From: Octopus vulgaris
Taxonomy: Eukaryota
Direction: 5' to 3'
Assembly: GCA_951406725.2 (NCBI GenBank)
Contig: OX597842.1
Coordinates: 29,202,001-29,266,000, forward strand
Length of the DNA stretch: 64,000 nucleotides
In this document: positions 47,501 to 50,500 of the stretch, one piece after another
How positions within the stretch are numbered: the first letter of the stretch is position 1
Layout: each line of letters opens with the position of its first letter
Translations under genes and position numbers: made by a program
Notes under the pieces: model-generated
Seen by the model: only the letters and a program-made list of their open reading frames with translations
What the model was told of the DNA's origin: nothing
The model's database searches: none

Positions 47501-50500
47501 GCAGCAGACCAAAGCTTCTTACTTGGACAAAGACATCGTTTTAATGGATGTAATGATAGATTTACTAACAGTGAAAAAAAAGACAGGGTGATCACACTTG
47601 TAAGCTTTCAACTTAACCATCTTGTTCAACAAGAACATCAACAACAATAATCAGTAAACTTATTGAAAATGTACAACAAACAAACACTGTCATTAACTCA
47701 CCTGTTTACCATTAAACAACAAAATGTTTTTCTTCCTTCATTCAAAACACAATATTAACTCTATTGTTTTGTTTTTTTTTCTAATTTAACCATTTTAGCA
47801 ACAGAGCCAACACTGCTGGACATTTTATTAAATTTCTGTAATATCAATATTTTAAATATAATTCATGTTGTTACACGACTGGAAAGTACAGAGGCTGCTA
47901 CTTGTAGATGCTGAGAGAGAGAGGGGGGGAGGAAGAAACACGGAGAGAGAGGGAGACAACAATGAGATGAGAGAAAAGTGAATGTGTCTCATTAAGGGTA
48001 GAGAACCGCTTCGGGGTTTATATTTCATCTTTTGTATTTTTTCCTTATCGTGAAAGACATTTTTCCTGTGTCTCATAAAACCCCTTTATTGGATATTCTT
48101 GCATTTTTAGGTAGAGAATAGATTACTTTTATTGCTAACCATTCGAAAGAAATGTAACAATGGAACCTATTCTCAGTCATTCACACAAATAATATATCTC
48201 AGGTGAAGGTAAAATTTATAGAAATCAATTACAGTTATTTTATACTCACCAAAATATTCTACCATCGTCTTGACTACTTTCTCTTCAGACTTTGGAAACA
48301 CTGAAATAAGAATTGGAAATTAAGAATGGAACCTGTTCTCAGTCATTCACACAAATAATATATTTCAGGTGAAGGTAAAATTTATAGAAATCAATTACTG
48401 TTATTTTATACTCACCAAAAGATTCTACAACCGCCTGGACTGCTTTCTCTTCAGACTTTGGACACACTGAAATAAGAATTGGAAATTAAGAATGGAACCT
48501 GTTCTCAGTCATTCACACAAAAAATATATTTCAGGTGAAGGTAAAATTTATAGAAATCAATTACAGTTATTTTATACTCACCAAAAGATTCTACAACCGT
48601 CTTGACTGATTTTTCTCTACACCTTGGACACTCTGAAATAAGAATTGGAAATTAAGAATGGAACCTGTTCTCAGTCATTCACACAAATAATACATCTCAG
48701 GTGAAGGTAAAATTTATAGAAATCAATTACAGTTATTTTATACTCACCAAAAGATTCTGCAACAGTCTTGACTGTTTTTTCTCTACACCTTGGACACTCT
48801 GAAATAAGAATTGGAAATTAAGAATGGAACCTGTTCTCAGTCATTCACACAAATAATACATCTCAGGTGAAGGTAAAATTTATAGAAATCAATTACAGTT
48901 ATTTTATACTCACCAAAAGATTCTGCAACCGTCTTGACTGTTTTTTCTCTACACCTTGGACACTCTGAAATAAGGATTGGAAATTAAGAATGGAACCTGT
49001 TCTCAGTCATTCACACAAATAATATATCTCAGGTGAAGGTAAAATTTATAGAAATCATTTACAGATATTTTATACTCACCAAATGATTCTACAACCGTCT
49101 TGACTGCTTTTTCTTTACACTTTGGACATTCTGAAATAAGCATTTCAAAGTTTTATACTTCATAGTAAAATTTCTTTGTCTCTTTTAATAATCTATATTC
49201 CATTATTGTAAGGCATTCATATCACCAATAGTCAATTGGTGACCACTATGCTTTCGGTCAACACTTTCTAAGCTGTTACTATATAATAGTTCAATATTTA
49301 CAACAAGAACAAAATGAGTAAACCTTTCTAAATCTTATCTTTCTCTTAAGACATCCTATATACTAATCTAACAATTCTGAAATTCTCTCACTTAGTTATC
49401 ACTTCATAACATTCTTTTTCTCTTAGTTTTGTTGCTTCTTTCTTATGTCTTTGTTGGACAAGTTTAACGCAAAATTTCACATTGGTTATTTGTTCCTGCC
49501 CATTAGAAAATTGCAGACTACAGCCTACAAATGACCACAAAAGCACAAATTTCACAACTTTTGAAGTAAACGCAGTGGTGTCACCCAGCACACCGCCTCA
49601 TGAAAGTCATTTCTAGCTCTCACTGTGCGCGCAACGGTGTGCTGCCATCTGTTGGCATGCTACAGAACTAGTCCGTGAACTTTCTGATACCACCTTGGAG
49701 CAATGACCAGGCTTCATGTTCGAATTAAAACGAATCAACTCAAAAGTAAAGCCAAAAGGTGAAAGAGTCAGAAAACAATGTCTCTTTTAGCATTGATCAC
49801 ATCTAAAAACTAACGAGTGTGAGTATAAAATGTCTAAAAGGATGGCAAACATTATAACAAGTGTTAATAATATATAGTTACAAACAAGGAGTTGCATGTC
49901 TCCACTACAATATGAAGTGCATTATTCCATACCAGAAAGTTAATGAGACAACAGACAGATCAAGAAAGAATGTTCTTACCAAATCCACTTTTCCGGAGTA
50001 TGTGTTGTCGACATATGGGGCATTGCTTAAATGTCATTTGAGAACAGCAATTCTGACAAGTAACGGTATGTTGACATGGATGGAGTGTGACAGTAGCCTT
50101 TTTCTCTTGACACCACCGACACCTGTGGAACAAAATATTAACACATCCCATCATTAACATTCATTTATAATAAAATATTTCGTTGTGGACATGTTTAGAG
50201 TACAGAATATTAAGGGGCACAACAGTAACCAGCAAGAGTACATCGTAAATTCTTCTGTAAACAATTACATACAAGCAGATTTGTGCGCATACAAGTGTCA
50301 CATTAACATACACATACAAGGGTGGGCTGAAAATATTATAGGCTGACTAAGGAGGAATTATCATACAGTAATTAAACTTGGCACGCATTAAATTCAACCT
50401 TTACTGATGCGAATTGCATTTTTTCTTTCCAGATAAACCCACATTGGAATCAGAATTGAGGGCTTGCAAAAGTGGCACTAGAGACATTTTGCGAAAATGG

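Follow-up and report, generated by a model that had tools for sequence, protein, structure and literature searches.

The window analysed here, a stretch of 64,000 nucleotides of the Octopus vulgaris genome, carries on its minus strand a gene for an ankyrin–RING–death-domain protein with an array of six 51-nt exons. The array is a tandem row of spliced, frame-preserving exons and belongs to the linker that joins the RING to the death domain. We believe that each exon of such arrays probably started out as a copied death-domain exon 1, which then turned into a predicted docking site for the dimerising hub LC8 (DYNLL), with the window gene as a low-valency version. Each exon is referred to below as a unit.

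The exon array and its host gene

The six exons on the minus strand are all exactly 51 nt long. TTTCAG stands before and GTGAGT after every one of them, all six are stop-free and of phase 1-1, and the five introns between them measure 115 nt each. TRF reported a repeat at 48149-49144 with a period of 166, 6.0 copies, 95% matches and 0% indels. The structure described in the earlier note, that is, six stop-free phase 1-1 exons of 51 nt with these edges at 166-bp spacing, was confirmed by the sequence, by TRF and by the joints from sequencing runs, and the six units give the peptides that had been listed for them. The array is located between the RING exon (50122-49980) and the two death-domain exons (45925-45854 and 44512-44307). 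The nine non-unit exons of the host gene in the window all have an open frame, and the first coding exon lies past the window end. The features, in transcript order, are as follows.

62939-63090, minus strand: ankyrin exon; tblastn match to the O. sinensis orthologue P0008 (aa 28-78, 98%); AG/GT edges, open
61380-61536, minus strand: ankyrin exon; tblastn match to P0008 (aa 80-132, 98%)
59986-60344, minus strand: ankyrin exon with 102-bp internal repeats (TRF); tblastn match to P0008 (aa 132-251)
57002-57038, minus strand: short ankyrin exon, 37 nt; tblastn match to P0008
53533-53745, minus strand: ankyrin exon, 213 nt, open and in-frame; in the O. sinensis orthologue model, absent from CAI9744105.1
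51086-51261, minus strand: pre-RING exon; joint to the RING exon in 4/4 runs
49980-50122, minus strand: RING exon, Pfam zf-C3HC4_3, phase-1 end; Pfam and joints
49080-49130, minus strand: unit 1, 51 nt; CxxC; Lys at the anchor; joint from the RING exon in 6/6 organism-A runs
48914-48964, minus strand: unit 2, 51 nt; CxxC; Lys at the anchor; sequence and joints
48748-48798, minus strand: unit 3, 51 nt; CxxC; Lys at the anchor; one base off unit 2; sequence and joints
48582-48632, minus strand: unit 4, 51 nt; CxxC; Lys at the anchor; sequence and joints
48416-48466, minus strand: unit 5, 51 nt; without CxxC; sole Gln anchor (V-Q-A, Thr+1 missing); sequence and joints
48250-48300, minus strand: unit 6, 51 nt; without CxxC; Lys at the anchor; at least 8 bases from every other fetched young unit; joint to death-domain exon 1 in 7/8 runs
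45854-45925, minus strand: death-domain exon 1, 72 nt, phase 1-1; homology to the units in its flanks
44307-44512, minus strand: death-domain exon 2, which includes the stop codon; P0001 matches Pfam Death at aa 479-559

The public O. vulgaris model CAI9744105.1 has 563 aa, with Pfam ankyrin, zf-C3HC4_3 and Death domains, and its last exon is 100% identical to that of the window. The model holds all six units, so the array was not missed by gene predictors, contrary to the earlier expectation that it would be hidden from them. The exons themselves are already known from public gene models.

A second paralog occupies positions 1-17300 of the window on the minus strand and continues in L031. It has ankyrin exons near 17234 and 13713 (a duplicated block), a RING exon at 4207-4067 and an array from position 394. 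This array begins with a frame-breaking 53-nt unit, followed by four 36-nt CxxC units without the LC8 motif segment. Between the two paralogs lie a minisatellite (18606-22776, period 99-101 bp, about 40 copies, with CA/CT runs) and an assembly gap of 100 N (33193-33292). An intronic stretch at about 58400-59250 shows, by eye, a resemblance to what we take to be a decayed mariner-type transposase.

Splicing and exon skipping

Splice joints were collected from the contigs of 8 public runs, out of 24 listed, belonging to 5 studies. Six were organism-A runs and two were organism-B runs. The run type 'RNA' is a guess, and the weight of the run evidence lies in joints that fall on GT-AG edges. Joints at unit edges were found in 8/8 runs. 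In the organism-A runs, the RING exon was joined to unit 1 in 6/6, unit 4 to unit 5 in 6/6, unit 5 to unit 6 in 5/6, and unit 6 to death-domain exon 1 in 5/6. Unit 1 was joined to unit 2 in four of these runs and to the near-identical unit 3 in two. The depth of the chain joints was similar within a run (474-595 in X4 and 162-244 in X6), which fits a single main form with all units. In the two organism-B runs the path ran from unit 2 to unit 4, unit 6 and the death domain, with full 51-letter sides. This path agrees with the four-unit O. sinensis orthologue P0008, and a different genomic copy number is its most likely explanation. The joints at the predicted edges indicate that the units are real spliced symmetric exons between the RING and the death domain, as had been proposed.

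None of the joints listed for the six organism-A runs, in contigs that drop rare forms, was a skip specific to this gene that lands on unit 6 or on death-domain exon 1. A direct joint from the RING exon to the death domain was likewise not among the joints listed in the 8 runs, which does not amount to absence because contigs lose rare forms. Several skip-like joints were rejected as proof of skipping. The joint from the RING exon to unit 5 (in X7, with loose ends elsewhere) was set aside because the paralogs L039, L043, L045 and L046 share an identical RING end, and the first unit of these four is one base off window unit 5. The joints from unit 1 to 3, 2 to 4 and 2 to 5 were set aside for short sides or because near-identical units or paralogs can give rise to them.

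The O. sinensis models of the orthologue form a 17-aa ladder (600/583/566/549 aa). For one paralog, 21 O. sinensis models cover 15/16 subsets of its four units, including none. Such gene models are computed from short reads, and cross-mapping can inflate these skipping ladders. The earlier idea that any subset of units can be gained or skipped in frame was partly borne out. The unit number does vary, from 1 to 8 among the paralogs and with four units in the O. sinensis orthologue against six here. Skipping is present in the O. sinensis gene models, whereas the contigs from O. vulgaris trace a chain with all units, and their skip-like joints are explicable by paralogs or near-identical units.

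The paralog family

At least 114 matches to one unit were found in the genome (40 of 151 candidates scored). For the census, 38 stretches were fetched, 35 of which had units; three rows duplicating the window start and one mis-called 7-nt row were excluded. It comprised 99 young units in short-intron arrays from 27 sources (one with two arrays; 1-8 units per source), 21 older, dispersed units at 9 loci on C10, C29 and C31, and 30 longer exons, with a length of 72 or 57 nt. The host gene belongs to a young set of about 28 ankyrin–RING–death-domain paralogs. Among the young units, 76 were 51 nt long, 17 were 36 nt long and six were frame-breaking (one of these, 26 nt, is perhaps an inexact call). 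Each frame-breaking unit was single, and the in-frame 36-nt deletion variant had 17 copies at 7 loci. The AG was kept in 97/99 young units and the GT in 99/99, and none of the 93 in-frame units had a stop codon.

In a representative protein search that was crowded by long ankyrin proteins, 10/10 family-like matches looked up were from Octopus, which does not show that the family is absent from squid or other molluscs. Literature searches, which covered mostly papers outside subscription, found no published description of the family or the array. The main text of PMC9068888 had no match for ankyrin, mind bomb or death domain.

Probable origin of the unit from death-domain exon 1

The sequence around the unit resembles that around death-domain exon 1. 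Upstream, the flanks of the two had 71% identity along 379 nt (z 18.7); downstream, they had 83% along 82 nt (z 12.4). Neither score was reached by any of 200 shuffles. The flanks of the RING exon and of death-domain exon 2, compared with the unit flanks, scored at shuffle level. The same splice-site anchors as those of the units also pick out death-domain exon 1. The exon-to-exon match between the window units and the window death-domain exon 1 was weak (z 1.5-2.1), and the best pairs of unit and death-domain exon 1 in the family scored above 300/300 shuffles. In a tree of 123 rows, the 72/57-nt exons fell on one side of a branch (92/89; short alignment). These data suggest that the unit is likely a shortened duplicate of death-domain exon 1, a direction that we infer from unrooted comparisons. 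It is the simplest reading because death-domain exon 1 begins the Pfam death domain. In that case a short linear motif likely arose when an exon that encodes part of a folded domain was duplicated. Against the LC8 reading, death-domain exon 1 has Lys-3 and the preceding acidic residues at equivalent positions, which leaves the core Q-T as the one unit-specific part.

Eight paralogs (L033:4414, L034, L035, L038, L041, L044, L049 and L055) have an extra 72-nt copy of death-domain exon 1 with a diverged peptide, located between the array and the true exon 1, and this copy is optional in the O. sinensis models. In the O. sinensis models P0032, P0042, P0044, P0052, P0054 and P0057, death-domain exon 1 is five residues shorter, which suggests an inner acceptor. 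One O. vulgaris paralog (L051:5481) has a 57-nt death-domain exon 1.

The LC8-type motif in relatives and its erosion in the window

The LC8 motif is given in the available text of PMC3078936 as [DS]-K-x-[TVI]-Q-[TV]-[DE], and the strict core [KR]x[TVI]Q[TV] was scored on that basis. Fifteen older family proteins, mutually related, were chosen by hand from three Octopus species. They had 25 core motifs in 1,083 linker residues versus 0 in 4,596 other residues, a count that overstates independence because the proteins are related. At least one core motif was present in 14 of the 15. In 1,000 shuffled linkers the mean was 0.46 motifs and the maximum was 3. Units from O. vulgaris, O. sinensis and O. 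bimaculoides retain the motif although the residues next to it change and the units have diverged in other respects; it was found in none of the 30 longer (72/57-nt) exons. The older 51-nt units in the genome, 20 in number, had the Gln in 19 cases and Q-T in 13, with a dN/dS of 0.57. The known LC8 sites of Bmf (EDKATQTL; PMC3078936) and gephyrin (EDKGVQCE; PMC12057147), as quoted in the accessible parts of these papers, are close to the octopus motif. The linker of paralog P0006 is predicted to be unfolded (pLDDT <50 at residues 1-66), with an adjoining death domain mostly above 90. From the motif evidence we predict that the unit likely docks LC8 in the relatives. The genome also has a canonical LC8/DYNLL gene, which is intronless and encodes 89 aa (L069:1489-1758 on C25).

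The young subfamily is different. The strict motif was present in 26/93 young in-frame units, and 15/27 young loci had it in none of their in-frame units. In the window array it was found in 0/6 units: Lys takes the anchor position in five, and unit 5 has V-Q-A. The anchors given in the available part of PMC12057147 are Q, N, M, S and G, a set without Lys. With five Lys anchors and a unit 5 that lacks Thr+1, the window linker is predicted to be a long spacer that binds LC8 weakly or not at all. Given these counts for the window and the young units, the family may be losing its LC8 function instead of tuning it.

Self-association is common among RING and death domains. In the proposed mechanism, unequal crossing-over would add or remove an exon together with its 115-nt intron, a block of 166 bp, and the phase 1-1 would keep the frame. 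Each K-x-[TVI]-Q-T unit would bind one LC8 dimer across two chains and so zip them beside the RING and the death domain. The pairing strength would be set by the number of units, the type of unit and exon skipping. The window paralog would then stand at the low-valency end of a family that diversifies its RING-to-death-domain linker.

The CxxC pair

The CxxC pair is present in units 1-4 of the window, the four RING-proximal units, in agreement with the earlier note, and is absent from units 5-6. The claim that the pair was lost from the last two units did not hold. Because the second cysteine is absent in older units and the CxxC clade is nested, CxxC in units 1-4 is read as a gain; the first cysteine was lost in unit 6 alone. 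The second cysteine is one base away from the Ser or Phe codon of the other units, and 0/20 older 51-nt units have it. On the tree, 28/31 distinct CxxC rows fell into a single clade that is surrounded by QT units and others (trait columns in the tree), and about 5 changes are needed in all. By this comparison of sequences, CxxC is a recent gain, mostly of one unit lineage, and not ancestral. In one unit of the CxxC lineage (L034:6329) both cysteines have been changed to tyrosine, a single case.

The CxxC units could be a new metal-binding module, either as intra-chain C-x2-C-x13-C-x2-C zinc ribbons or with a zinc ion shared by CxxC pairs of two chains, which would take over from LC8 in pairing. 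Adjacent units 1-4 do have this spacing, with 13 residues between neighbouring CxxC motifs. Among the 93 young in-frame units, 34 had CxxC and only one had both CxxC and the strict LC8 motif, with CxxC alone in 33 and the motif alone in 25. This exclusion would suit the module, but it is largely shared descent because nearly all distinct CxxC rows belong to one clade. The two residues between the cysteines differ within the main CxxC clade (PK, PR, SK, PM, PG), and both cysteines are kept in 28/30 of its rows, which also speaks for the module. The AlphaFold2 model of P0001 is confident in the ankyrin and death domains, and residues 314-474, including the RING, are mostly below 50. It also draws, with pLDDT <50, hairpins whose turns coincide with the CxxC motifs of unit 2 and unit 4; the model is uninformative on zinc ribbons because the true RING failed to fold too. 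The one-base origin of the second cysteine, its absence from the older units and the lone CxxC unit in several arrays argue against the module. Pfam gave no family over the cut-off among the best 25 of 87 matches to the CxxC stretch, and a PDB search with the same stretch gave generic sub-threshold matches (best E-value 0.08). Overall, we regard this explanation as doubtful.

A broader proposal is that every cassette exon would contribute one pairing site. A death-domain exon would have been reused as an LC8-docking exon, and in the young, rapidly diversifying cluster the 166-bp cassette would exist in QT (LC8-binding), CxxC (zinc-binding) and blank versions. Put together by unequal crossing-over and exon skipping, these would form a combinatorial zipper code that sets the threshold of RING–death-domain assembly. 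We hold this code to be rather unlikely.

Divergence of the unit exons

The unit exons diverge 3–5x faster than the adjoining introns or the RING exon. In 43 distinct exon-plus-intron units, the p-distance was 0.143 for exons versus 0.045 for intron cores (permutation p 0.004), and within the window it was 0.113 versus 0.032. In 10 paralogs of this RING type, the value was 0.112 for unit 1, 0.024 for the RING exon and 0.024-0.031 for the introns. The wider interest of this result is that exons diverge several times faster than introns within the same tandem repeat. The dN/dS was 1.16 for the 49 distinct exons of the young units and 1.15 within the window array, and the synonymous sites of young units were also fast (pS 0.139). 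CpG hypermutation was rejected as the cause of the fast exons: CpG transitions made up 2/50 exon variants. With this dN/dS and the fast synonymous sites, mosaic exchange of old alleles would fit as well as selection on the peptide. We believe that the cause is likely diversifying selection combined with a mosaic exchange between units. Splicing signals within the unit exon may also be under selection, as a further candidate cause.

These values also bear on the assumption that the array is clutter which selection tolerates. On this view, a floppy linker would let the symmetric exon multiply and disappear by unequal crossing-over, with selection on the frame only, and the peptide of the young subfamily would be irrelevant. 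The dN/dS values of both the young exons and the window would agree with this, as would the broken frame in 6/99 young units, the missing AG in 2/99 and the many young loci without the strict motif. However, neutral drift leaves the 3-5x faster exons unexplained, and CpG transitions are too few to account for them. The in-frame units are also free of stop codons and are spliced in. The clutter explanation is unlikely in our opinion.

One class of death-domain exon 1, that of the window (45925-45854), L037, L042, L048 and L052, is fast as well, with 0.133 versus 0.02-0.04 in its flanks; the other class has 0.028. This observation would suit units that are diversifying baits or decoys in an immune-sensor family, similar to death-domain helix 1 or to an LC8 site, and targeted by or competing with pathogen proteins. 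The large clustered family of ankyrin, RING and death-domain proteins suggests immune signalling, which would point in the same direction. However, a unit of 17 residues is too small to form a death-domain surface, and we consider baits or decoys highly improbable. The reading that we hold most likely is the predicted LC8 docking site, probably duplicated from death-domain exon 1 and eroded in the window.

Comparison with known systems

Databases label many family members 'MIB2-like'. MIB1 and MIB2 have a Mib-Herc2/ZZ N-terminus and two or three RINGs. Like them, the octopus proteins have ankyrin repeats followed by a zf-C3HC4_3 RING. Unlike them, P0001 and P0008 have one RING and end in a death domain, and the array of exons is a further difference. 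Pfam found ankyrin, one RING and Death in P0001 and P0008, and neither Mib-Herc2 nor ZZ. By its domain content, the host protein is not a Mind bomb orthologue. In the CxxC units, the two CxxC motifs 13 residues apart recall C4 zinc ribbons or knuckles. The octopus units differ from these in the Pfam result (nothing over the cut-off among the best 25 of 87), in the recent single-base origin and in the lack of a confident fold.

The earlier note compared the array with the micro-exon genes (MEGs) of Schistosoma. As described in the available parts of 10.1101/2023.06.21.545858 and PMC4350168, MEG products are secreted and have a signal peptide, and the genes are assembled largely from micro-exons, between which lie introns of 0.1-5 kb. 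By the definition in the accessible text of PMC4350168, very small symmetric exons make up most of the coding region. The octopus array shares with MEGs small symmetric exons and accelerated evolution. Skipping variants, another MEG trait, occur in the O. sinensis gene models, and the organism-A contigs list no skip specific to the window gene. In contrast to MEGs, its micro-exons give 102/563 residues, within an ankyrin, RING and death-domain protein, and its introns are one repeated 115-nt sequence. By inspection, P0001 has no N-terminal signal peptide and starts with charged helices and ankyrin repeats. The likeness thus extends to the exon design, and the coding fraction and the inspected N-terminus place the gene outside the MEG class.

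KANK1 and GKAP are reportedly multivalent LC8/DYNLL clients. ASCIZ has several LC8 sites, and its activity depends on how many there are and how many are occupied, according to the available text of PMC5963919. How the number of LC8 sites tunes client activity is an active question, studied there with engineered site mutants. Like such multivalent clients, the octopus relatives have rows of short LC8-type motifs in predicted disorder. Unlike in ASCIZ, each octopus site, for which binding is predicted, is a symmetric exon of its own, which is gained or lost as a 166-bp block and is skippable in gene models. The window paralog also differs from ASCIZ-type clients in having lost the motif (0/6). 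If LC8 docking is true, the approximately 28 near-identical paralogs and their splice forms would provide a natural series that ranges over 0-7 intact sites without a change of frame, in which the motif-less six-unit version of the window is a built-in control. The window protein lacks the strict motif; at the level of the family, the linker is likely to work like a multivalent LC8 client.
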